Source of the DNA: Acidobacteriota bacterium
Lineage (GTDB): Bacteria > Acidobacteriota > Aminicenantia > Aminicenantales > Saccharicenantaceae
DNA: 64,000 nt
Reading direction: 5' to 3'
Assembly: GCA_029569255.1 (NCBI GenBank)
Contig: JAKQUO010000019.1
Span: forward strand, 23,175-87,174
Shown here piece after piece: positions 1,170 through 60,382 of this stretch (its first letter is position 1; each line of letters begins with the position of its first letter). Below the pieces are notes generated by a model. The model saw only the letters and a program-made list of their open reading frames with translations. It was not told where the DNA came from and made no database searches. Both the position numbers and the translations under genes were made by a program.

Positions 1170-3986
1170 GTGAAAACCCGCTTTTTCGCCGTTCTCATCA
1201 TCATGGCCCTGGCCGCCGCGCTGCCCTCGACGGCCGCGGCCCAGCTCAATCAGACGGGCACGCTGGCCGGCACGGTCACGGACAGCGACAAGCTGCCCTT
1301 GCCGGGGGCCACGGTCACGATCAAGTCCCCGGTCATCATCGTGCCCCAGATGGACGCGATCACGGGCCCTAAGGGGAATTACCGCTTCCTGTCCCTTCCC
1401 CCCGGGCTCTACGAGGTCGCCTTTTCGCTCGACGGCATGGACACGCTCGTCCGGAAGGACATCCGGATCAGCGTCGCGCAGACGACGACGATCGACGCCG
1501 TCCTGGAGCCGTCCACGCTGAGCGAGACGGTCGTCGTCGTCGGGGAGAGCCCGACGATCGACGTCAAGTCCACGACCAAGGCGACCAACCTGGACCGGAC
1601 GTTCATCGCCGCCCTGCCCACGGCGCGGAACCTGGACGCCTACTTCAACATGGCCCCCGGCGTCACCGCCGAACGGAACCCCAACGGGCTGATGTCGTCC
1701 GCCAGCGGGAGCGGCGTCCGCGACAACAGCTACAATCTGGACGGGGTGAACATGACGGCGCCGGACGTCGGCACCCAGCAGTTCCAGTTCGGCACGGACA
1801 TCATCGACGAGATCCTGATCCAGTCGGGGGGGATGCCGGCGGAGTTCGGGGACGCCATGGGGGCCTCGATCAACATCGTGACGCGCTCGGGCGGGAACAG
1901 GCTGAGCGGGTCGGCCAGCGTCTATTACAACACCCTCAAGCTGCAGTCCAACAACACGGCCGGCACGCCGCTGGAGGGGGCCAAGAGCGGCTACCAATAC
2001 GTCCTCGAACCCGGGATCGCCCTGGGAGGGCCGATCGCCAAGGAAAGGCTCTGGTTCTTCACCAACCTGAGCCTGAATTCCCGGTCCAGGCTCATCCCCG
2101 GCTTCCCCTACGACCAGCCCGCGCAGGTCCCGGCCAAGGAGACCCGCTACTACCCCTATGTCAAGCTGACCTTCCAGCCCAGCCAGGCCCACCGGTTCTC
2201 GGCCTCCTACAACTACTCCGATTACCTCCAGGACAACGCCGGCGCCAACCGGTTCGCGACCGAGAGCACCACGGTCAAGTGGACGGCCCCGACCCACATC
2301 CTCAACCTGCAATGGACGGCGACGTTCTCCCCGACCATGTTCGCCGATTTCAAGGTCGGCTACTATGTCAACAACCAGGAGCTCCGGTCGAAAGAGGACC
2401 TGCCCTTGATCGTCGAGCAGACGACCGCGCAACAGTCGGGCAGCTACGTCGGCACGGACCTCTACACGGCCGGCCGCTTCCAGACCAACGCCAACCTGAC
2501 CTATTTCGCCGACAGCTTGGCCGGGTCCCACGAATTCAAGGGCGGCGTCGAGTTCCAGGCCATCGACTCCACGCAGAGCTTCACGCCCAATGTGGACCCC
2601 CGGAACGGCATGTCGCAGATCATCACCCGCAGAGGCACGCCGCGTTACGGAGTCGTCATGGCGCCGTCGGCGAACAAGGTGGCCGGGACGAACATCCACG
2701 CCTACCTCCAGGACAGCTGGAAGCCCGCCAAGCGGCTGACGCTCAACCCGGGCCTGCGCCTGACCTACCAGAGCGGCCGCTTCCCGCCGCAGAACGAGAG
2801 CGAAGGTCCCCAGGACTTCCTGGGGGTCTCCTTCAACCGGAGCGTCACCCGGACGATCAACGCGTTCAACCGGACGGCCCTGGCGCCGCGGCTGGGCGTC
2901 ATCTTCGACCTGACGGGGGACCGCAAGACGCTGTTGAAGGCCAGCTACTCCCGCTACCTCCAGTCCAATATCATCGCCTATTACGCGTCGGCCAACCCCA
3001 ACGGTTCCTTCTCCTACGTCCAGGCCCTGGCCCCGGACTGGACCCCGGTCCCGGGCGCCTACCTCAACGCGAGCTTCCCGATCCCGGCCAAGGCGGGCTA
3101 CGACGGCGCCGGCATCAAGACCCCCTACACGGACGAATTCGCCGTGGCCGTGGAACGCGAGCTCTTTCCCGATTGGGTCCTGTCCGCCCGCTACACCCGC
3201 AAGGCGGACCGGAAGCTCATCGAGGACGTGGACGCCAACCAGCTGGACATCGACCGCCTGGCGGCCGACGGCGCGCTCGTCTGGACGAACTGGACACAGG
3301 TTCCGTTCACCGACCCCTATGACGGACAGGAGCGGTTTTTCTGGAGCATGAACGCCATCCTCCCGCCGGACTCCTACCTCATGAACCCTCCCGGGGCCGA
3401 AAGGGACTTCAAGGGCGTCGAGCTCACCCTGAACAAGCGCTATTCCCGGGGCTGGTCCCTCATGGCCAGCTACGTCTGGCAGGACGCGGTCGGGCTCATC
3501 TCCACCTCTTGGGGCGGCAGCACCGCGAATTCCGGCCTCTTCGACAACCCGAACTCCCACATCAACCAGTACGGCCACGCGTCGCTGTCGCCGCGGTCCC
3601 AGGTCAAGGTGCTGGGCATGGTCGCCGGCCCCTGGGGCATCAACGTCAGCGGGTTCTTCCGCTATTTCACGGGACAGCGCTACACGCGGACTCTGCACAG
3701 CTCGGACATGGGGGTCACGCTGGCTCAGGGGAACGAGACCATCAACGCCGAAAAGAGGGGCTCCCGGGAGCTCCCGAGCCAGGTCATCCTGGACCTGAGG
3801 CTGGAAAAGCTCTTCCGCCTGGGCGGGACCAAGGTGGCCTTCTTCGCCGACTGCTTCAATCTCTTCAACGGGAACAAGGCCACCTCCGTCCACACCCGGA
3901 GCGGCAGCCCGGTCTACGTGTTCGGGCAGATGACCGCGATCCAGGACCCGAGGGCCGTCCGGCTCGGGTTCCGTTTCGAGTTCTAG
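1170..3986 (+). CDS. TonB-dependent receptor with N-terminal carboxypeptidase-regulatory-like domain
   Basis: 938 aa with a signal peptide, a CarboxypepD_reg-like N-terminus (TLAGTVTDSDKLPLPGATVTI), plug and barrel, and an OMP-type C-terminal RLGFRFEF. GTG start follows a GAGGAGGA RBS. Confidence 0.85.
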   Translation: MKTRFFAVLIIMALAAALPSTAAAQLNQTGTLAGTVTDSDKLPLPGATVTIKSPVIIVPQMDAITGPKGNYRFLSLPPGLYEVAFSLDGMDTLVRKDIRISVAQTTTIDAVLEPSTLSETVVVVGESPTIDVKSTTKATNLDRTFIAALPTARNLDAYFNMAPGVTAERNPNGLMSSASGSGVRDNSYNLDGVNMTAPDVGTQQFQFGTDIIDEILIQSGGMPAEFGDAMGASINIVTRSGGNRLSGSASVYYNTLKLQSNNTAGTPLEGAKSGYQYVLEPGIALGGPIAKERLWFFTNLSLNSRSRLIPGFPYDQPAQVPAKETRYYPYVKLTFQPSQAHRFSASYNYSDYLQDNAGANRFATESTTVKWTAPTHILNLQWTATFSPTMFADFKVGYYVNNQELRSKEDLPLIVEQTTAQQSGSYVGTDLYTAGRFQTNANLTYFADSLAGSHEFKGGVEFQAIDSTQSFTPNVDPRNGMSQIITRRGTPRYGVVMAPSANKVAGTNIHAYLQDSWKPAKRLTLNPGLRLTYQSGRFPPQNESEGPQDFLGVSFNRSVTRTINAFNRTALAPRLGVIFDLTGDRKTLLKASYSRYLQSNIIAYYASANPNGSFSYVQALAPDWTPVPGAYLNASFPIPAKAGYDGAGIKTPYTDEFAVAVERELFPDWVLSARYTRKADRKLIEDVDANQLDIDRLAADGALVWTNWTQVPFTDPYDGQERFFWSMNAILPPDSYLMNPPGAERDFKGVELTLNKRYSRGWSLMASYVWQDAVGLISTSWGGSTANSGLFDNPNSHINQYGHASLSPRSQVKVLGMVAGPWGINVSGFFRYFTGQRYTRTLHSSDMGVTLAQGNETINAEKRGSRELPSQVILDLRLEKLFRLGGTKVAFFADCFNLFNGNKATSVHTRSGSPVYVFGQMTAIQDPRAVRLGFRFEF

Positions 3987-39656: not shown

Positions 39657-41881
39657 TGGGGAAGCGGGCCGCGGGGCGGGGATGCCCCCCCCGGAGCGAG
39701 GCGAGGGGAGGGCTTCTGCGCCTGGTCATCATCATCGCCGTCCTCGCGGCCGTCGTCGCGCTCGTGACCGGAAAGGGCCAGGAGAGGACGGCCGGGGGAG
39801 CCCCGGCGAAGGGGCTGCTCGACCTGTTGGGGATCGCGCCCTCGGCGGAGTCGGCCGATTACGTCCGGGCGAAGACCCCGTTCCAGCTCCACACCCTGCT
39901 CACGGAACAGCGCCACCCGAAGACGTGGCGGCTCGGCGAGACGGTCCGCGGGGACACGCTGGCCGGGCTGAGGATGCTCTCCTCGGTCGACGACGACATC
40001 CGGGCCAGGATGGACGGGCTCGCGGCGGCGCCGGAAACGCTCGAGCGGGCGGCTCGGGCGGTCGAGGAGGCCATCGTCGGCGGCCGTAAGGTCTACGTCT
40101 ACGGCTGCGGCGCGACCGGGCGGCTGGCCAAGCAGATGGAGAGCGCTTTCTGGCGCCCGTTCTGGCGCAAGGTCAAGGCGGACCCGACGATCTGGAGACG
40201 CCTCCAGGGACGCATCCCGGCCGGGATCGAGGAGGCCCTCGTCGGCGAGATGACCGGCGGCGACCGGGCCCTGATCAGCTCCCTCGAGGGCTTCGAGGAC
40301 CTCCAGCTCATCGGCCGGCTCCAGCTCCGGGACCGGGGCGTCGCGCGGGGCGACGTCGTCATCTGCGTCACCGAGGGCGGCGAGACGTCGTCCGTCATCG
40401 GGACCGTCCTGGCGGCCCTGGACCAGTGGCGGGCGGAGCCCGGGGCGGGAGGCGCGGAGGAGAGCCGGAAGCGGCTGTATTTCGTCTACAACAACCCGGA
40501 CGACCGGCTCCTGCCCTTCGAGCGGAGCCGGAGCGTCCTGGCCGAGCCGGGCATCGCCAAGATCAACTTGACGACGGGGCCGCAGGCGATCGCCGGCTCG
40601 ACGCGCATGCAGGCGACGACGATCGAGACCTACGTCCTGGCCGCGGTCGTCGAGACGGCGGTCGAGCGGGCCCTGGCGAGGACGCTGGGGAGGCGCGAGC
40701 TGGCCCGGCTGGGGTTCGCGGGGGGAGCGGCGGCGGAGGGGGTCGCGGACAGGCTCCGGGAGTTCGGGGCCGTCCTCGACGGCGCCCGGGCGGCCCTGCC
40801 GGCGCTGGCGGCGCTGACCGACATGGAGGCGGCGGCCTACGCGGCCGGCCGGTTCTCCACGTACTACGCGGAGAAGGGGCTGATCACCGTCTTCATCGAC
40901 AGCACCGAGCGCAGCCCGACCTTCCGGCTCTACCCCCTCGACACGGTCGGCGAACCGGCGCGCAAGTGCTGGATCCAGGTCTGGACGAGGGCGGGGACGG
41001 CCGCGGCGGCGTGGCGGGCCTTCCTGGGCCGGCCGTTCCGGGGGCTGTCCGAGGCGTTGTACCGCCGGCCCTTCGAGACCGAGGTCGAGGACCCCTACCT
41101 GAGGCGGGCCGCCCTCGAGAGCCTGAAGAGGGCCGGCGACGACCAGGCCGGGCGCTACGATTTCTCGCTGTCGAAAGCCAACCGGGAGAGGCGGGGGCCG
41201 AAGAAGGGGGACCTGTGCGTCCTCGTGGCCCTGAGCCCGGAGGAGACGGAGTTCGAGCTCCCGTCGTCGTCGTTCACCGAGGTCCTGCGGCTGGCCCGCG
41301 AGGGCGGCGCGGACGCGGCCGTGCTGACGGTCACGAACCGGCCGGCCAAGGACTTCCCCAAGCTCGAAGAGAGCGTCCGCCGGCGCTGGACGGGGAAGGG
41401 CGGCCGGCTCGTCGTCGTCCCGGTCCACGTCCGGACGGCCGGCGACGCGTTCGGCGTCCGCCAGCAGACGGCGGCCAAGATGCTCCTCAACGCCCACTCG
41501 ACGGCGGTCATGGCCAAGCTGGGCAAGGTCGTCGGCAACACCATGACCAACGTCAGCCCGAGCAACCTCAAGCTCATCGGGAGGGCGACCTACCTCATCC
41601 AGTCCCACGTCAACGACGTCCTGGCCCGCCCCGAGTGGGTGTCGGCCCACGGAGCGCGCGAGCCGATCACGTACGGCGAGGCCAACGCGGTCCTGTACGA
41701 CTCGATCGCCTTCCTCGCGGGCCGGCCGGCCGAGGCGGGGCAGACGGCCGAGGTCGCCCTGTCGATCGTCCGCATCCTCGAGTCGCTGGGCCGGAAGCGC
41801 GGCGTCGGCCCGGCCGAGGCACTGGAGATCGTCAGGACGGTCAGCCTGAGCGACTACCTCAAGACGGGGTCAAACCTTTAA
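39656..41881 (+). CDS. Membrane-anchored SIS-domain protein (MurQ/GCKR-family-like)
   Basis: 741 aa with an N-terminal TM helix and a SIS-like VYVYGCGATGRLAKQ ... GSTRMQATTIETYVL. Its last five codons and TAA stop (GSNL*) are supplied by the terminal repeat of the adjacent mobile element. Confidence 0.55.
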   Translation: MGKRAAGRGCPPRSEARGGLLRLVIIIAVLAAVVALVTGKGQERTAGGAPAKGLLDLLGIAPSAESADYVRAKTPFQLHTLLTEQRHPKTWRLGETVRGDTLAGLRMLSSVDDDIRARMDGLAAAPETLERAARAVEEAIVGGRKVYVYGCGATGRLAKQMESAFWRPFWRKVKADPTIWRRLQGRIPAGIEEALVGEMTGGDRALISSLEGFEDLQLIGRLQLRDRGVARGDVVICVTEGGETSSVIGTVLAALDQWRAEPGAGGAEESRKRLYFVYNNPDDRLLPFERSRSVLAEPGIAKINLTTGPQAIAGSTRMQATTIETYVLAAVVETAVERALARTLGRRELARLGFAGGAAAEGVADRLREFGAVLDGARAALPALAALTDMEAAAYAAGRFSTYYAEKGLITVFIDSTERSPTFRLYPLDTVGEPARKCWIQVWTRAGTAAAAWRAFLGRPFRGLSEALYRRPFETEVEDPYLRRAALESLKRAGDDQAGRYDFSLSKANRERRGPKKGDLCVLVALSPEETEFELPSSSFTEVLRLAREGGADAAVLTVTNRPAKDFPKLEESVRRRWTGKGGRLVVVPVHVRTAGDAFGVRQQTAAKMLLNAHSTAVMAKLGKVVGNTMTNVSPSNLKLIGRATYLIQSHVNDVLARPEWVSAHGAREPITYGEANAVLYDSIAFLAGRPAEAGQTAEVALSIVRILESLGRKRGVGPAEALEIVRTVSLSDYLKTGSNL

Positions 41882-43212
41882 TTTTTTAATTTTTCCCCGT
41901 CCGTGAGAATCGGGACCCGTTTCGGCGTCTTTATCAAGGGCGGATATCCGTCCCTTGAAAAGCGAGCCTCCCATGTCAAGGCAACCGAGAATCGCGTATC
42001 CAGGCGCCTTCTACCATGTCTATTCCCGGGGAAACCAGAAACAACGGATCTTTTTCTCTGACGAGGATCGAGGCTTCTTCCTGAAGATCCTCAGGGACGC
42101 CCATGAGCGATTCTCGGCCATGTGGCATCTTCTGTGCCTCATGGAAAACCATTATCACCTGGGCTTGGAAACGCCGAAGGCCAATCTCTCCCAGATCATG
42201 CATTTCGTCAACTCGGCCTATTCCATCTACCTGAACACGAAACATGAAAGGTGCGGCCATATTTTCCAGGGGCGATTCAAGGCCATCCTCGTTCAAACCG
42301 GCCTCTACGCCCGGACCCTGACGAAGTACATCCACGCGAATCCCGTCCGGAAGGGCATCGTCGCGAAGCCGGAGGATTTCGAGTGGTCGAGTTGCCGGGT
42401 CTATTTTGGGCTTCGGCAGGCGCCCGCCTGGCTCAGCACGAAAACGATCATGGCTTGTTTCGAAGGCAACGCATCAGCCCTGCGAAAGGAGCACGAGGAT
42501 TATCTCGCTTCCCCGGAAGATCTGTCGTTCAGAGAGCAGCTCAGGTCGGCCGCCAGCGTCGGCATCCTGGGCGACGACGATTTCGTAGACAAGCTCCGCC
42601 GGTCTTTCTTGAAGGAGGCTCTCGAAGCGAACGACGATGAGCTCGGAGGACTCAGGAGGCTCCGGATCAGGCCGGAGCTCGGAAGGATCGCGGACGAGAT
42701 CCACAGAGAGTTGGGGGACAAGAACAAGCTGGCCAGGAAGTGCGCGATCTACTTCGCCCGCCATTACGCCGGCTACAAGCTCAAGGAGATCGGGGAATTC
42801 TACGGGATCGGCCCGGCCGCGGTTTCTATCGCGTTCCACGCCATAGAAAGCACCGTGGCCGCCAACGAAGTCTTGAAAGGCGCTTTCGAAAGAATCAAAG
42901 AACGGCTAACCTGGATTATTCACGAATCGACACGGCTCCCAGATGCGAGGCCCGAGGGGTGAAGCCGTACTCTGCGGCACCGCGAATCCCGAGAACGAAC
43001 GAGATGGGGCCGGTTCGGTTCGCCCGAAGGGTCAAAGCGCCCGGATAAGAATAAGCCCGGCTAATGACCTGAATCGTCGTCGAATCTAGACGTCCCTCAG
43101 ACGCGAAGTCCCGGGGGCGAGAACGAACGGGGCGTTTTATGAATAAACCTGGAAGAGCGGGAATCCGGCATCAAGGAAAAGGAGAAAATTAAACTTTTAA
43201 AGGTTTGACCCC
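41866..43212. mobile_element. 1.35-kb TIR-bounded element carrying a Y1 transposase::DnaA_C gene
   Basis: Left end GGGGTCAAACCTTTAATTTTTTAATTTTTCC. Right end (reverse complement) GGGGTCAAACCTTTAAAAGTTTAATTTTCTCC. The low-GC interior fills the whole space between two convergent stop codons. Confidence 0.65.
41955..42962 (+). CDS. IS200/RAYT-like Y1 (HUH) transposase fused to a DnaA C-terminal-like HTH domain
   Basis: HUH motif MENHYHL, catalytic Tyr region TKYIHANPVRKG, and a C-terminal helix-turn-helix resembling the DnaA domain IV (ARKCAIYFARHYAGYKLKEIGEFYGIGPAAVS). Confidence 0.75.
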   Translation: MKSEPPMSRQPRIAYPGAFYHVYSRGNQKQRIFFSDEDRGFFLKILRDAHERFSAMWHLLCLMENHYHLGLETPKANLSQIMHFVNSAYSIYLNTKHERCGHIFQGRFKAILVQTGLYARTLTKYIHANPVRKGIVAKPEDFEWSSCRVYFGLRQAPAWLSTKTIMACFEGNASALRKEHEDYLASPEDLSFREQLRSAASVGILGDDDFVDKLRRSFLKEALEANDDELGGLRRLRIRPELGRIADEIHRELGDKNKLARKCAIYFARHYAGYKLKEIGEFYGIGPAAVSIAFHAIESTVAANEVLKGAFERIKERLTWIIHESTRLPDARPEG

Positions 43213-43215
43213 TTC

Positions 43216-44319
43216 TTAGGCTTCGAGGCTGTAACAGGGGGCGGCGGCCGGGCGGGGCTTGCGCTTCGGCTTGGCCTTGACCTGGGGGTAGACGAACAGC
43301 TCGCCGGCGTAGTTCCGCAGCACGACCCGCTCGTCGGTGATCGACTGGATGTACTTCGGCAGGACGGGGATCTTGCCGCCGCCGCCGGGCGCGTCGATGC
43401 AGTAGTACGGGACGGCCAGGCCGGACGTCCAGCCGCGCAGGGCCTCCATGATCTCGAGGCCCTTCTCGACCGTCGTCCGCAGGTGCTCGGTCCCGCTCAC
43501 GTAGTCGGCCTGGTAGATGTAGTACGGCCGGACCCGCGCCGCCAGGAGCCTCTGCATGAGCCGGCGCATGACCAGCGGGTCGTCGTTGACGCCCTTGAGC
43601 AGCACCGTCTGGTTGCCGAGCGGGATGCCGGCGTCGGCCAGCAGGCCCAGGGCCCGCGTCGCCTCGGGCGTCAGCTCGTCGGGGTGGTTGAAGTGGACGT
43701 TGACGTAGAGCGGGTGGTACTTCTTGAGCATGGCCGCGAGCTTTTCCGTGACCCGCTGCGGCAGGACGCAGGGCACCCGCGTGCCGACGCGGATGATCTC
43801 GACGTGCGGGACGGCCCGGACGCCCTTGATGACGGCCTCGAGCCGGCGGTCGCTGAGCATGAGCGGGTCGCCGCCGGAGACGATGACGTCCCGGATCTCG
43901 CCGTGGGCCCGGATGTAGGCCAGCCCGTCCTCGATGTAGCGGGGGTGGATCTTGGAGGGATCGCCGACCTTCCTCTTCCGGGTGCAGAAGCGGCAGTAGG
44001 AGGCGCAGCTGTGCGAGACGAGGAAGAGGCACCGGTCGGGGTAGCGGTGGACGATGCTCGGCACCGGGGAGTCGTGGTCTTCCTCGAGCGGGTCGGCGAC
44101 GCCGCTGCCGGTCCTGAGCTCGGCCGGGTCCGGGACCATCTGGCGCCACATGGCGTCCCCGCGCTCCTTGATCAGCCCGGCGTAGTAAGGCGTGATCTGG
44201 ATCTTGAACGTCTTGGCGATCCGCCGGACCTCCTCGACGTCGAGCCCGAACTTCCGGGCGATCTCCTCGGGTTTCCGGAGAGCGCCTCGGAGCGAGCGTT
44301 GCCAGTCGTCCATCTCCAA
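43216..44319 (-). CDS. kamA: Lysine 2,3-aminomutase family radical SAM enzyme (KamA/EpmB-like)
   Basis: CASYCRFCTRK radical SAM motif and KamA-family conserved blocks (IRDVIVSGGDPL, HPLYVNVHFNHP). 367 aa. Confidence 0.8.
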   Translation of the reverse strand: MEMDDWQRSLRGALRKPEEIARKFGLDVEEVRRIAKTFKIQITPYYAGLIKERGDAMWRQMVPDPAELRTGSGVADPLEEDHDSPVPSIVHRYPDRCLFLVSHSCASYCRFCTRKRKVGDPSKIHPRYIEDGLAYIRAHGEIRDVIVSGGDPLMLSDRRLEAVIKGVRAVPHVEIIRVGTRVPCVLPQRVTEKLAAMLKKYHPLYVNVHFNHPDELTPEATRALGLLADAGIPLGNQTVLLKGVNDDPLVMRRLMQRLLAARVRPYYIYQADYVSGTEHLRTTVEKGLEIMEALRGWTSGLAVPYYCIDAPGGGGKIPVLPKYIQSITDERVVLRNYAGELFVYPQVKAKPKRKPRPAAAPCYSLEA

Positions 44320-56188: not shown

Positions 56189-57613
56189 TCAGGCCGCCAG
56201 GACCTCGGCGGCCGCGGCCGTGACGATGTCCCAGGCGCCGCGGACGTGCCGCTCCCCGGTCGTCCGCTGGCCGACGGCCAGCCGGACCGTGAACTTGCCG
56301 CGGAGCGTCGTGTGGGTCAGGTAGACCGGGCCCGCTGCGTTGACGCGGTCGAGGAACCGCTTGTTGAGCTCGTTCAGGGCGTCCTCGTCCCGGCCGTCGT
56401 TGAGCCGGAAACAGACCAGGCCCAGCTCGGCCGGCGCCAGGAGCTCGAAGCGGGCGTCGGCTTCGACCCAGTCGCGGACGAGGGCGGCCAGGCGCAGGTG
56501 CTCGCGGACCATGGCCTGGAGGCCCTCGACGCCGTAGCCGCGGACGACGAACCAGAGCTTGAGGGCCCGGAAGCGGCGGCCGAGCTGGATGCCCCAGTCG
56601 CGAAGGTTCCTGACCTTGGCGTCGACGCCCGTCCTGAGGTACTCGGGATGGACCTCCAAGGCCCGGACGAGCGCGGCCGGGTCCTTGACGAAGTGGGCCG
56701 AACAGTCGAAGTTCGTCAGCATCCACTTGTGGGGATTGAAGACGAGCGAGTCGGCCAGCTCGGCCCCGTCGAGGATCCAGCGCTTTTCGGGGAGCAAGGC
56801 GGCCGTCCCGGCCCAGGCCGCGTCGACGTGGAGCCAGAGGCCGTGCCGGCGGCAGATCTCGCCGACCGGGCGGAGCGGGTCGATGGCCCCCGAGGAGGTC
56901 GTGCCGACCGTGGCCACGACGCAGGCCGGGACGAGGCCGGCTTCCCTGTCCCGCGCCAGGGCCTCCTCGAGCTTCTCCGGGACCAGGGCGAACCGGCCGT
57001 CCGTGGGGATGCGGCGGAGATTTTTCCGGCCGAAGCCGGCGATCTTCACTCCTTTCACGACGCTCGAATGGGCCTCCTCCGAGGCGTAGACCGCCAGGGG
57101 CGCGCTGAAGCCCGACTCGTTCGTCTCGAACCCGGTCGCCCTCTCCCGGGCCGCCAGCAGGGAGCAAAGGGTGGCCGTCGAGGCCGTGTCCTGGATGACG
57201 CCCGAGAAGCCGGCCGGGAGCCCGATCATCTGGCGGAGCCAGTCCATGACCACCTCTTCGAGCTCGGTCGCGGCCGGGGAGGTCTCCCAGACCATGCCCT
57301 GGGCGCCGAGCCCGGCCGCCAGGAGCTCGCCCAGGACAGAGGCGGGACTGTTGTTGGCCGGGAAATAGGCGAACCAGCCGGGGTGCTGCCAGTGCGAGAT
57401 GCCCGGCATGACGATCCGCTCGAAATCGCGGAACAGGACGTCCATGGCCTCGCCCCGGGCCGGCGGGACGGCGGGGACGAGGGCCTTGATCTCGCCCGGC
57501 CCGACGCGCGATCGGACCGGGTATTTCTCGATATTCTCGAAATAATCGGCGATCCAGTCCACGAACTGGTGCCCGGAGCGGCGGAAATCGTCGTTTTTCA
57601 TGGCCAACTCCAC
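56189..57613 (-). CDS. PLP-dependent group II decarboxylase (aromatic-L-amino-acid/tyrosine decarboxylase-like)
   Basis: SLVFNPHKWMLTNFDCSA PLP-Lys motif. About 470 aa. A likely alternative start is MKNDD at 57601. Confidence 0.8.
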   Translation of the reverse strand: MELAMKNDDFRRSGHQFVDWIADYFENIEKYPVRSRVGPGEIKALVPAVPPARGEAMDVLFRDFERIVMPGISHWQHPGWFAYFPANNSPASVLGELLAAGLGAQGMVWETSPAATELEEVVMDWLRQMIGLPAGFSGVIQDTASTATLCSLLAARERATGFETNESGFSAPLAVYASEEAHSSVVKGVKIAGFGRKNLRRIPTDGRFALVPEKLEEALARDREAGLVPACVVATVGTTSSGAIDPLRPVGEICRRHGLWLHVDAAWAGTAALLPEKRWILDGAELADSLVFNPHKWMLTNFDCSAHFVKDPAALVRALEVHPEYLRTGVDAKVRNLRDWGIQLGRRFRALKLWFVVRGYGVEGLQAMVREHLRLAALVRDWVEADARFELLAPAELGLVCFRLNDGRDEDALNELNKRFLDRVNAAGPVYLTHTTLRGKFTVRLAVGQRTTGERHVRGAWDIVTAAAAEVLAA

Positions 57614-57796: not shown

Positions 57797-57826
57797 TTGA
57801 TTTCGCCGCTCGACCTGTGCTATAAT
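57797..57826 (+). promoter_or_regulatory. Strong sigma70-type promoter TTGATT-N18-TATAAT with no adjacent ORF
   Basis: Read from the sequence. About 230 nt downstream is a 14-bp GC hairpin (GGGCCGCCCCGGCC ... GGCCAGGGCGGCCC) that abuts the MITE. Confidence 0.5.
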
Positions 57827-58059
57827 GGATAACGGTCGTCGGAGGGCGGGGGGAAAAACCCAAAAAAATGCAAGGCGTCGATCTCCGCCCTCCGGCCGCC
57901 GCCCTTCCCTCTTCGGCGGACGCAACGTTGCGCCGGGGAAGGCCGTTCTATCAAGCGAGTGGACAGGATGAACGTGAAACCTCCTTTTCGGCTTCTTCGA
58001 TAACCTCCTTCCCCCCCAGGGGCCGCCCCGGCCTGGTGACGCGGCCAGGGCGGCCCTCT

Positions 58060-58189
58060 GGGGTCAAACCTTTATTTTTTCAATTTCCGCTTCACCCCTC
58101 GGGCCTCGTATCTGTGGGGCCGCCTCGAGTCATGAATAACTCAGGCTATTCGTTAGGCCGGGAAATTAAAAAATTAAAGGTTTGACCCC
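58060..58189. mobile_element. 130-bp MITE-like miniature element with the same terminal inverted repeats as the 41866-43212 element
   Basis: Left end GGGGTCAAACCTTTATTTTTTCAATTTCC. Right end (reverse complement) GGGGTCAAACCTTTAATTTTTTAATTTCC. It is AT-rich and non-coding. Confidence 0.65.
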
Positions 58190-58210
58190 TTCTTTTCTTT
58201 AGCTTAGAAT
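58182..58210 (+). promoter_or_regulatory. Hybrid promoter: -35 TTGACC inside the MITE terminal repeat, 17-nt spacer, -10 TAGAAT in flanking DNA, immediately upstream of the riboswitch
   Basis: Read from the sequence. Spacing and hexamers are close to consensus. Confidence 0.45.
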
Positions 58211-58211
58211 G

Positions 58212-58360
58212 GACGCGGCTTTGTGAGAAGGGAAGTCCGTTAGACGCGGACACAGCCCCCGCTACTGTATCCGGGGACGAATCCCGAAGGACGCCACGGC
58301 CGCCAAGCCGGAAGGCTCGGGAGGAGGACGATCCGGGAGTCAGGAGACCTTCCAAAAAGC
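58212..58360 (+). ncRNA. Cobalamin (AdoCbl) riboswitch
   Basis: AAGGGAAGUCCG..., CCCGCUACUGUAUCCGGGG and the B12 box AGUCAGGAGACC at 58338-58349. CAGGAGACC is repeated at the RBS of the downstream receptor gene. Confidence 0.75.
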
Positions 58361-58429
58361 CCGGTCGCGCGGTCTTCGGGAGGAAGACGGGGCCGGAAAA
58401 AGCGGCGGGGGCGGCCAGGAGACCCCGCC

Positions 58430-60382
58430 ATGTTCCGACGGTCAGCGGTTCTCGCGTCGTTCATCGCTCTCTTCCCCCTGATCCCCGCGGGCCTCCTCGC
58501 GGAGGACCGACAGGGCCAGGCCGGCCCGCTTCAGCACGACATCGTCGTCACCGCGACCCGGCTCGAAACGCCGGAGAAAAAGGTCGGAAGCTCGATCACC
58601 GTCGTCAGCGGCGAAGAGCTCGTCCGCACCGGCCGGAGCTTCGTCCTCGACGCCCTGGTCGATGTCCTGGGCCTCTCGGTCGTCCGCGCCGGCGGCCCGG
58701 GCGCGTCCGCCTCGGTCTTCGTGCGCGGCGCCAATAGCGAGCATACGCTCGTCCTCCTCAACGGCGTCGAGCTCAACGACCCGATCAATCCCTCTCGCTC
58801 CTGCGACATCTCCCACCTGCCCCTGAGCCAGGTCGAACGGGTCGAGGTCCTGCGCGGGCCGCAGGGCCTGCTCTACGGCTCGGACGCCCTGGGCGGCGTC
58901 GTCAATATCATCACCCGCTCGGGGCGCGGGCAGCCCCGCCTGTCCCTCGCCTCCTCGTTCGATACGCTGAGCTCGCTCACGGCGGACCTCTCGCTCGCCG
59001 GCGCCGGCCGCAAGGCGGACTATGCCTTCTCGGCCTTCCACGAGCGGACGGCCGGCCTGTCCGCGGCGGCCGAAGCCTACCCCGGCAACACCGAGAAGGA
59101 CGGCTACAGGAACCTGACCCTGGCCGGCCGCTTCGGATACGCCTTCACGCCCGCGTCGAGACTGACCTTGACCGTCCGGGGGACGGCGGACCGCGCCGAG
59201 ATCGACAACTTCGGCGGCCCGGGCGGGGACGATCCGAACAACGTCCAGAGCTACAAGAACCTCCTCGTGCGCGGCCAGCATCGGAGCCTGTCGGCGAACG
59301 GGCGGTGGGAGAAGGCCGTGTCTCTCTCCTGGGTCGGGACGCGGCGGGCGACCGGCAACCCGGTCGACCCCGCCCATCCGGCCGACAGCGACCGCAGCCT
59401 CTACCGCGGCGGCCTCGTCCAGCTCGACTGGCAGAACAACTTCTTCCTCCGTCCGACGCACACGCTGACGGCCGGGCTCGAGGCCGCGAGCGAAAGCGGG
59501 AGCTCGGACTGCGTCTCCGAGAGCGCCTACGGCCTCTGGGAGTCCGCCTTCCCGTCGGTCCGGGCCCGCTCGGCCGGCCTCTACCTGCTCGATCATTGGG
59601 AGAGCGGCGGCCGCTTCTTCGTCACGACAGGCGTCCGGGCGGACGGCCACAGCCGCTCCGGCGCGGCCGTGACGTTCCGGGCGGCCCCGGCCTATCTCAT
59701 CGCGGGCGCCGGGACGCGGTTCAAGGCCAGCTTGGGCAGCGGCTTCAAATCGCCATCGCTCTATCAGCTTTTCGCCCCGGCCACGCCGTTCGGCCCGGTC
59801 GGCAATCCCCTGCTCCGCCCGGAGCGGTCCCTGGGCTGGGACGCGGGGGTCGAGCAGAGCCTGGCCGGCGGGCGGACCGTGCTCGAGGTCACCTGGTTCA
59901 ATAGCTCGTTCCGCGATCTCGTCACCTTCGATTACGGGGCCGGATACGTCAACATCGGCCGGGCCCGGACTCAGGGTCTCGAGGTCTCGGCAAAGGTCCT
60001 GCCCGGCCGGAACTCGCGCCTCCTCGCGTCCTACACGCGCCTTTCGGCCCGCGACCTCGTATCCGGGACCGAGCTTCCGCGCCGGCCCCGGGACAAGTTC
60101 TCGGCCGAAGCGGGGCTCCGTCCTTTCGGGGCGTTCGATCTGGCGGTTCACGTCCTGTGCGTCGGCCGACGCCTGGACCGCGACTTCAGCGCTTATCCCT
60201 ACCCGACGACGACCCTGCCCGGCTATGTCCTCCTCGATCTCGTCATCACCAAGACCCTCCGTTCGGGGCTCGAGGTCTTCGCCCGGGTCGACAACCTGCT
60301 CAATGCCGACTACCAGACCGTCTGGGGCTACGGCTCGCCCGGCCGCGTCCTCCGCACAGGCCTCCGCCTCGCCCTCTATTGA
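58430..60382 (+). CDS. TonB-dependent receptor, BtuB-like (vitamin B12/cobalamin family)
   Basis: 650 aa with a signal peptide, TonB box DIVVTATR, plug and 22-strand barrel, and terminal aromatic RLALY. Confidence 0.8.
   Translation: MFRRSAVLASFIALFPLIPAGLLAEDRQGQAGPLQHDIVVTATRLETPEKKVGSSITVVSGEELVRTGRSFVLDALVDVLGLSVVRAGGPGASASVFVRGANSEHTLVLLNGVELNDPINPSRSCDISHLPLSQVERVEVLRGPQGLLYGSDALGGVVNIITRSGRGQPRLSLASSFDTLSSLTADLSLAGAGRKADYAFSAFHERTAGLSAAAEAYPGNTEKDGYRNLTLAGRFGYAFTPASRLTLTVRGTADRAEIDNFGGPGGDDPNNVQSYKNLLVRGQHRSLSANGRWEKAVSLSWVGTRRATGNPVDPAHPADSDRSLYRGGLVQLDWQNNFFLRPTHTLTAGLEAASESGSSDCVSESAYGLWESAFPSVRARSAGLYLLDHWESGGRFFVTTGVRADGHSRSGAAVTFRAAPAYLIAGAGTRFKASLGSGFKSPSLYQLFAPATPFGPVGNPLLRPERSLGWDAGVEQSLAGGRTVLEVTWFNSSFRDLVTFDYGAGYVNIGRARTQGLEVSAKVLPGRNSRLLASYTRLSARDLVSGTELPRRPRDKFSAEAGLRPFGAFDLAVHVLCVGRRLDRDFSAYPYPTTTLPGYVLLDLVITKTLRSGLEVFARVDNLLNADYQTVWGYGSPGRVLRTGLRLALY

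Follow-up and report, generated by a model that had tools for sequence, protein, structure and literature searches.

The locus upstream of a cobalamin riboswitch and its BtuB-like receptor gene raises the question of whether a mobile element whose end holds a −35 hexamer supplied the promoter of the gene that follows it or came to lie on a promoter that was already there. The locus is part of a 64,000-nucleotide stretch of contig JAKQUO010000019.1 (here called the window) from an Acidobacteriota bacterium known from metagenomes only. An earlier note on this DNA had proposed that a 130-bp miniature inverted-repeat element (MITE), derived from a larger element elsewhere in the window, donated the −35 box to the riboswitch promoter.

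The 130-bp element, its source, and its dispersed relatives

The element and its parts are as follows.

58060 to 58189, minus strand: 130-bp nonautonomous inverted-repeat dimer (MITE-like), defined by arm search, fold, and loop homology
58060 to 58088, plus strand: left arm, GGGGTCAAACCTTTATTTTTTCAATTTCC, with two mismatches to the 27-mer described below
58089 to 58160, minus strand: loop, about 66 nt of which is homologous to window positions 42901 to 42972
58161 to 58189, minus strand: right arm, which matches the left end of the transposase unit at 27 of 27 positions and holds the outward-facing TTGACC

The 27-mer GGGGTCAAACCTTTAATTTTTTAATTT occurs four times in the window at three or fewer mismatches, at 41866 on the plus strand (no mismatches), 43212 on the minus strand (three), 58060 on the plus strand (two), and 58189 on the minus strand (none), whereas 100 shuffles produced no such match. 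The ends of the 130-bp element are therefore the same repeats that bound the segment from 41866 to 43212, as the earlier note had claimed, and the 27/27 identity that it reported between the first and fourth copies was reproduced. The arms of the element are 29 nt long, 93% complementary, and separated by 72 nt, and the fold computed for the element as single-stranded DNA is a single long hairpin (−31.3 kcal/mol; z = −6.0). Outside the left arm lies the sequence AGAGG, which is atypical of the flanks found in the dispersed family.

The loop aligns over 66 nt with positions 42901 to 42972, at the 3′ end of the transposase gene region, with 81.8% identity (blastn E = 4e-14) and in inverse orientation, the whole element being inverted relative to the transposase unit; a 26-nt core of the loop is 96% identical to the interior of the unit. 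Within the window, the two arms match the left end of the unit at 27 of 27 and 25 of 27 positions, whereas the loop is only 82% identical. We relied on this within-window comparison of arms and loop because loci elsewhere were retrieved by means of an exact arm pattern, which biases any estimate of arm conservation between orthologous copies. Judged by these alignments, the copy upstream of btuB is a genuine internal-deletion derivative of the resident transposase unit whose arms have been kept tighter than its loop, and it is not a recent one, since the loop has diverged by 18% from its source. The element was present in all four contigs (L001 to L004) that encode an identical BtuB and include enough upstream sequence.

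The source unit of the element comprises two features.

41866 to 43212, plus strand: transposase-bearing unit (TIRtron) of 1,347 bp, with 27-nt terminal inverted repeats at 41866 to 41892 and 43186 to 43212
41973 to 42962, plus strand: TIRYT/RAYT-like Y1 HUH transposase of 329 amino acids (Y1_Tnp; NHYH and YIHANP; weak C-terminal HTH)

The transposase translation contains the motifs NHYH and YIHANP and matched Pfam Y1_Tnp at 40.1 bits (cutoff, 23); its best NCBIfam match, REP_Tyr_transpos, scored 65.9 bits, which is under the equivalog cutoff of 80. At the C terminus there were weak matches to Bac_DnaA_C (E = 0.0032; 17.9 bits against a cutoff of 31.5) and HTH_23 (E = 0.081), and a comparison with PDB sequences gave no match at E ≤ 0.01. 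The homologues are proteins of ~310 to 345 amino acids, mostly from Aminicenantes/Acidobacteriota, some of which are named “REP element-mobilizing transposase RayT” by their source.

Every transposase-bearing copy that we recovered (the window, L057, L063, and L117) lies between the same two convergent genes, a SIS-domain gene and kamA, and in all four the transposase gene is flanked by long terminal inverted repeats and no REP hairpins. Across the four lineages the units at this locus have transposase identities of 45 to 100% and KamA identities of 84 to 100%: L057 and L063 are 77% identical to the window in the transposase and 86 to 87% in KamA, and L117, which has a different terminal repeat (GGGGTCAAATCTTCATTCG...), is 45% and 84% identical, respectively. 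L116, a closer relative by KamA (91 to 92%), has three nested short elements and no transposase unit at its kamA locus, and the kamA locus of L118 holds other palindromes. With its position between the SIS-domain gene and kamA kept in four lineages, the unit does not qualify as a classic autonomous insertion sequence; by its synteny it behaves instead in a RAYT/TIRYT-like manner. The earlier description of the long and short copies as a classic autonomous-element/MITE pair holds insofar as the ends and the 66-nt loop match mark the short copy as an internal-deletion derivative. It fails insofar as the long unit is confined to one syntenic locus and most short copies have unrelated loops.

Several details of the kamA locus deserve mention in their own right. 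The SIS-domain gene runs five extra codons into the left terminal repeat (window 41861 to 41881; ...KTGSNL-stop), the native end in L118 being ...DYLK-stop, and the kamA stop codon (window 43213 to 43218) falls within TTCTTA, the sequence flanking the right repeat, making KamA a few residues shorter than in L116 to L118. The three nested elements of L116 (positions 3614 to 3890, downstream of kamA) belong to a sister subfamily, GGGGTCAAACCTAC..., and the inner two are each followed by TTCTGAGACTTCC. The ~213 nt that precede the right repeat of the unit (window 42973 to 43185) are matched in neither L057 nor L063, in which the 3′ region departs from that of the unit from about 42905 onward; this segment contains a degenerate tip, AAGGGTCAAAGC, and short Logan contigs of the unit from >20 samples break exactly at 42972, suggesting a nested remnant or a strain variant.

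A scan of public metagenomes for the end motif returned 95 stretches, which reduced to 68 distinct short dimers (loci L016 to L112), so that the 130-bp element, which might have been a one-off hairpin, is a member of a dispersed family. In a scan of species-representative metagenome-assembled genomes, a set that does not include the window's own genome, the sole hit was Acidobacteria bacterium RA.bin134, with two short copies of 82 and 84 bp. These results, together with the shuffles, rule out a chance hairpin at 58060 to 58189. We also considered attC- and CRISPR-like readings, but the copies form no arrays, their arms are inverted rather than direct repeats, and no integrase or cas genes were seen beside them in the window or the fetched loci.

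The short dimers have a length mode of 82 to 85 bp (35 of 68) and a second mode of 93 to 95 bp despite unrelated loops, which are GC rich (63%) and share a 10-mer in only 16 of 2,145 pairwise comparisons. Among the 60-odd loops tested, just one other than that of the btuB copy, in L022, matched the interior of the transposase unit. On the outside, the flanks hardly vary from N-T-C-T-T, with T at +2 in 147 of 149 ends and C at +3 in 142 of 149, and are T rich out to +9. On both sides they often extend to TTCTTA/TAAGAA and so provide TAA stop codons for genes reading inward. To which party this flank belongs is answered differently by two comparisons, the L113/L122 pair described below pointing to the element and the homology of the btuB promoter spacers pointing to the host. 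A search for target site duplications revealed no general one; a CAAG..CAAG boundary was seen in the L113/L122 pair only.

Short copies were found at orthologous sites in lineages with flank identities of 72 to 95%, and only two empty-like sites were seen; L116 and L017 contain nested clusters. An ORF-based classification of gene context was dropped as uninformative because this GC-rich DNA has long spurious ORFs, and 72 of the 137 ends classified came out as ambiguous. At the btuB loci of L064 (345 to 487) and L094 (2399 to 2562), the flanks are 91 to 93% identical and elements of 143 and 164 bp occupy the same site with loops that cannot be aligned, a pattern implying that an element body can be replaced in place. 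A separate palindrome family, GGGGACAC...GTGTCCCC, occupies two hot spots, one upstream of the btuB promoter (L115, about 2720 to 2750) and one downstream of kamA (L118, about 3860 to 3900).

The riboswitch promoter in orthologous btuB loci

Downstream of the element, three features follow in order on the plus strand.

58182 to 58210, plus strand: sigma-70-type riboswitch promoter found by promoter scan, with −35 TTGACC (58182 to 58187), a 17-nt spacer, and −10 TAGAAT (58205 to 58210)
58217 to 58370, plus strand: cobalamin riboswitch aptamer (RF00174), with stem P1 formed by GGCUUU (58217 to 58222) and AAAGCC (58356 to 58361)
58430 to 60382, plus strand: BtuB-like TonB-dependent receptor (Pfam Plug and TonB_dep_Rec_b-barrel)

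The promoter scan reported two sites, 58182 to 58210 and 57797 to 57826, against 0.1 expected, and Rfam placed RF00174 at 58193 to 58370 (88.7 bits, E = 1.4e-20; threshold, 31.5). Both agree with the earlier observation that a TTGACC in the right repeat stands 17 nt from a TAGAAT directly before the B12 riboswitch. The predicted transcription start of the riboswitch lies near 58217. Taken from Rfam's alignment, such a start would truncate P1, a concern ruled out by the P1 that we redefined from orthologues, GGCUUU/AAAGCC, in which L115 shows a compensatory change (GGCUCA/UGAGCC). The best NCBIfam match of the receptor is TonB-B12, at 308 bits under a cutoff of 599.7, and JGI labels its homologues “vitamin B12 transporter.” The upstream gene, encoding a pyridoxal phosphate (PLP)-dependent decarboxylase (56189 to 57613), is on the minus strand and the receptor gene is on the plus strand, so the element lies in a divergent intergenic region.

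Separately, the riboswitch of L113 (about 2620 to 2800) appears to be interrupted by ~170 nt between GUCCGUUAG and AUGCGGAC; in the window's aptamer the corresponding stretch is a short hairpin (GUCCG...CGGAC).

We compared nine decarboxylase-btuB intergenic loci: the window, six found through relatives of its BtuB (L113, L114, L115, L120, L121, and L122), and two from the repeat scan (L064 and L094). Upstream of the −35 they differ as follows.

Window, L064, L094: element end fused exactly onto the −35
L114: ...CAGGGCAGCC-cc-TTGACC, without a repeat of this inverted-repeat kind
L122: ...tctctcttgccaag-TTGACC, without a repeat of this inverted-repeat kind
L121: no element of the window's family
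L113, L120: a different element (AGGGTCARAYCTAC...) ending 7 to 12 nt upstream of the locus's own −35
L115: a GGGGACA-type palindrome ending 8 nt upstream of the locus's own −35

All nine loci have the same layout, with TTGAC(C/G), a spacer of exactly 17 nt, TA[GAT][AC]AT, a further 6 to 8 nt, and then the GGCU of P1. Because this layout is kept in all nine and transcription beginning ~7 nt after the −10 would start at P1, TTGACC-17-TAGAAT is very probably the working riboswitch promoter. In six of the nine (L114, L122, L121, L113, L120, and L115), the −35 occupies the same position with no element on it. The spacers are homologous as well (ccttcttttctttagct in the window, ccttcctgcctttacct in L114, and ccgtccggcgtttgcct in L122). 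L113 and L122 form a clean filled/empty pair in which a 65-nt insert lies 12 nt upstream of a preexisting −35, and the insert leaves direct TTGACCC repeats 20 nt apart.

Since element-free orthologues have the same −35 in the same place, the riboswitch −35 is probably ancestral and inherited, and not donated by the element. The comparison with btuB upstream regions lacking the MITE, which the earlier note had itself put forward as a check, thus speaks against its claim of donation: the hexamer is at the identical position in 9 of 9 orthologues, among them L114 and L122, which have no such repeat.

The second promoter found by the scan belongs to a different transcription unit.

57797 to 57826, plus strand: promoter TTGATT-18-TATAAT of a separate conserved noncoding RNA (ncRNA), found by promoter scan and kept in orthologues
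57832 to 58059, plus strand: candidate structured ncRNA (RNAalifold), ending in a GC hairpin (58020 to 58056) that adjoins the left side of the element

Alignment of seven orthologues with RNAalifold gave 43 base pairs in the candidate ncRNA, 12 of them with compensatory changes. The RNA would be ~230 nt long in the window, and in relatives its length reaches ~310 nt. It would be closed by a GGGGG/CCCCC stem, contains two conserved sequences, ACCUCCUUUU, which is anti-Shine-Dalgarno-like, and AUUCCCCC, and ends in a GC hairpin that itself shows compensatory changes; a search of Rfam matched it to no family. The candidate ncRNA and its promoter, a strong one, are present in all of the btuB orthologous loci that include the region, and in element-free L114, too, about 260 nt separate the ncRNA promoter from the riboswitch. 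Given this conserved ncRNA of its own and the like distance in L114, the 57797 promoter was not displaced by the element; as far as conservation can tell, it is the promoter of a separate candidate ncRNA and not a displaced riboswitch promoter. The earlier note was correct that TTGATT-18-TATAAT is found there, but its view of an older, stronger riboswitch promoter split off by the MITE does not stand, since that promoter is conserved with its own RNA and lies at a similar distance where the MITE is lacking.

With moderate confidence, we favor an explanation in which the element is a TIRtron inverted-repeat dimer that overlaps the ancestral riboswitch promoter, B12 control stays with the riboswitch, and the 57797 promoter is independent. 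Single strands of the element would fold into the long hairpin, which is presumably the form handled by the transposase, by analogy with REP/RAYT and IS200/IS605. The outward terminal octamer of the element, TTGACCCC, coincides with the −35 of the promoter, and the element would have inserted at, or become fused to, a TTGACCCC that was already present. Fusion could have come about in two steps, an insertion a short way upstream and then slippage between direct TTGACCC repeats, in which case repeats of the type seen in L113 would yield exactly the fused arrangement of the window, or by integration guided by end homology. Either way, the −35 hexamer and the spacer would be unchanged, and only the DNA upstream of the −35 would have been replaced, by an A/T-rich arm that might have an UP-element-like effect. 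Transcripts from TTGACC-17-TAGAAT would begin at stem P1 of the riboswitch controlling the BtuB-like receptor, where B12 control would remain, and the 57797 promoter would serve the upstream ncRNA independently.

Alternative origins and roles of the overlap

Element tips may act as −35 boxes elsewhere in the family. At 10 of 149 ends, the TTGACC of the tip has a −10-like hexamer at a distance of exactly 17 nt, compared with about 1.9 at other offsets, and when orthologues are collapsed such boxes occur in 6 of 93 groups, compared with 1.4 expected (P of about 0.003, uncorrected). A gene start follows each of the 17-nt sites that we inspected, two of them apparently leaderless. At L090 (1455), L068 (2266, minus strand), and L027 (1965, minus strand), genes start 6 to 8 nt after the −10 paired with a tip −35, and with that spacing their transcripts would be leaderless. 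This modest enrichment means either that several loci use a tip as their −35 box or that elements are drawn to TTGACC(CC) boxes, and it is consistent with genuine donation of promoters in some places at least.

This enrichment, with a gene start after each site, lends something to the alternative that fares best, namely, that an element end became the btuB −35 before the Aminicenantes lineages diverged and that L114, L122, and L121 have since lost the body of the element and kept its tip. Were this so, the hybrid-promoter idea would be right in a deep sense. All 8 nt of the tip, TTGACCCC, are present in L114 and L122, and the pentamers that come next, TTCCT or GTCCG, are similar to the flank N-T-C-T-T. 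TTGACCCC plus TTCCT in L114 equals an element end and consensus flank at 12 of 13 positions and could be the remnant of a lost element, and the −35 region of L113, AAGTTGACCCGGTCTG, is also similar to an element end with its flank. Furthermore, the fused state occurs in L064 and L094, whose BtuB proteins branch outside those of all the other loci, so the fusion could be old. On the other hand, TTGACC is near the sigma-70 consensus and is expected at any −35, and the full tip is lacking in L120 (TTGACG followed by CC), L115 (TTGACC followed by GG), and L121 (TTGACC followed by TC). A deletion of the body exactly to the edge of the hexamer in L114 would require a coincidence, and a remnant of the opposite arm was not seen in either L114 or L122. 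We regard such ancient co-option as unlikely, if worth keeping in view.

An overlap with the ancestral promoter could also be combined with a second role, in which the element hairpin and UUCUUUUCUUU stop read-through from the ncRNA promoter, the dimers being bidirectional terminators or stabilizers of mRNA ends, as some REP sequences are. The element does form a strong hairpin directly after the closing hairpin of the ncRNA, the family flanks are N-T-C-T-T on both sides and T rich to +9, and many copies lie between convergent genes with stop codons in or beside the flank (the transposase unit of the window, L016, and L035). However, the terminator scan did not call the element, its 72-nt loop is large, and element-free orthologues manage without it, and we consider a role of this kind improbable.

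That mobile-element ends create hybrid promoters is well established, and the TTGACC-17-TAGAAT geometry is correct for one, but a recent insertion in the window lineage that supplied a new −35 and displaced an older promoter at 57797 is very hard to credit when the −35 has the same position in nine of nine orthologues, six of them with no element on it, the spacers are homologous across loci, the 18% divergence of the loop marks the copy as not recent, and the 57797 promoter drives its own conserved ncRNA from equally far upstream in element-free L114.

A TIRtron system in Aminicenantes

TIRtrons are RAYT-like genes with long terminal inverted repeats (TIRs) and no REPs, and they encode transposases called TIRYTs; in the sections of Di Nocera et al. 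(2013, BMC Genomics 14:522, PMC3733652) used here, many TIRs begin with GGGGWSAS, some form dispersed families arranged in dimers or clusters, and one of the TIRYT groups, sharply delimited, is from Acidobacteria. The window shares with the TIRtrons of these sections a RAYT-like Y1 enzyme of ~320 amino acids with long TIRs, dispersed dimers, and a host of the Acidobacteria lineage. Its TIR tip, GGGGTCAA, fits the GGGGWSAS of the same sections at seven of eight positions, with A for S at position 8, and the tips of the neighboring family, GGGGACAC, in L115 and L118 fit exactly. In the part of Quentin et al. (2018, PMC6006769) drawn on here, most TIRYTs fall in subclass 2.1 and have Bac_DnaA_C or HTH tails. 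In the window transposase, the C-terminal match to a DnaA_C-like HTH is weak and under the cutoff. Aminicenantes are not among the hosts named in these parts of the two papers (PMC3733652 and PMC6006769), nor do these parts describe persistence at orthologous sites, unrelated loops with a mode of ~84 bp, or overlap between tips and −35 boxes. The repeat family of the window is a TIRtron/TIRYT system, an already-known class found here in “Candidatus Aminicenantes,” the label carried by the identical BtuB protein.

As in REPIN-RAYT systems (Bertels and Rainey 2011; Bertels et al. 2017, PMC5581495), the Y1 transposase is inherited vertically as a single copy and has on either side the repeat that it presumably disperses, single copy meaning here one transposase unit per recovered lineage at a fixed locus in four lineages, and hairpin-forming inverted doublets are dispersed and persist at orthologous positions. 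Unlike REPs, the arms in the window lack GTAG, are not self-complementary, and are not themselves hairpins, and whereas REPIN copies share a spacer, the loops of the window family are unrelated. The Y1 HUH chemistry and the origin of the short copy by internal deletion recall IS200/IS605. Those elements, however, lack TIRs, carry their hairpins subterminally, and occur as multiple autonomous copies, whereas the window family has 27-nt TIRs and every recovered transposase unit is at one syntenic locus. Outward promoter elements are familiar from bacterial MITEs and IS ends, as in the Correia elements of Neisseria and the −35 boxes of IS ends. The window has the corresponding arrangement, in that the terminal repeat carries a near-consensus −35 facing outward, 17 nt from a −10 in the flank. 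In element-free relatives, however, that −35 is found in the btuB flank already, and creation of the promoter by the element is not demonstrable.

More speculatively, TIR dimers could be functional modules in which the TTGACCCC tips and the A/T-rich tract act as portable −35/UP-like parts and the hairpins as transcript-end modules, kept at orthologous promoters and gene ends across Aminicenantes while the TIRYT homogenizes the arms and the loops drift. The btuB promoter would then be one co-opted site. We think this doubtful as a general account.

Aminicenantes are an uncultured lineage common in anaerobic digesters and sediments, to which the little-studied TIRtron/TIRYT class is hereby extended. 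With about 70 short copies, pairs of filled and empty sites, and transposase units in synteny, there is now a concrete set of loci for asking what TIRtrons do. The btuB locus also offers a caution, in that an element end with a consensus −35 can mimic a donated promoter when it merely overlaps one. The overlap of the −35 by the element is real and, to judge from the aligned loci, probably functional. Rewiring of B12-transporter expression by the element is unlikely: the promoter is an old one that has been conserved, and it is the riboswitch that regulates the gene.
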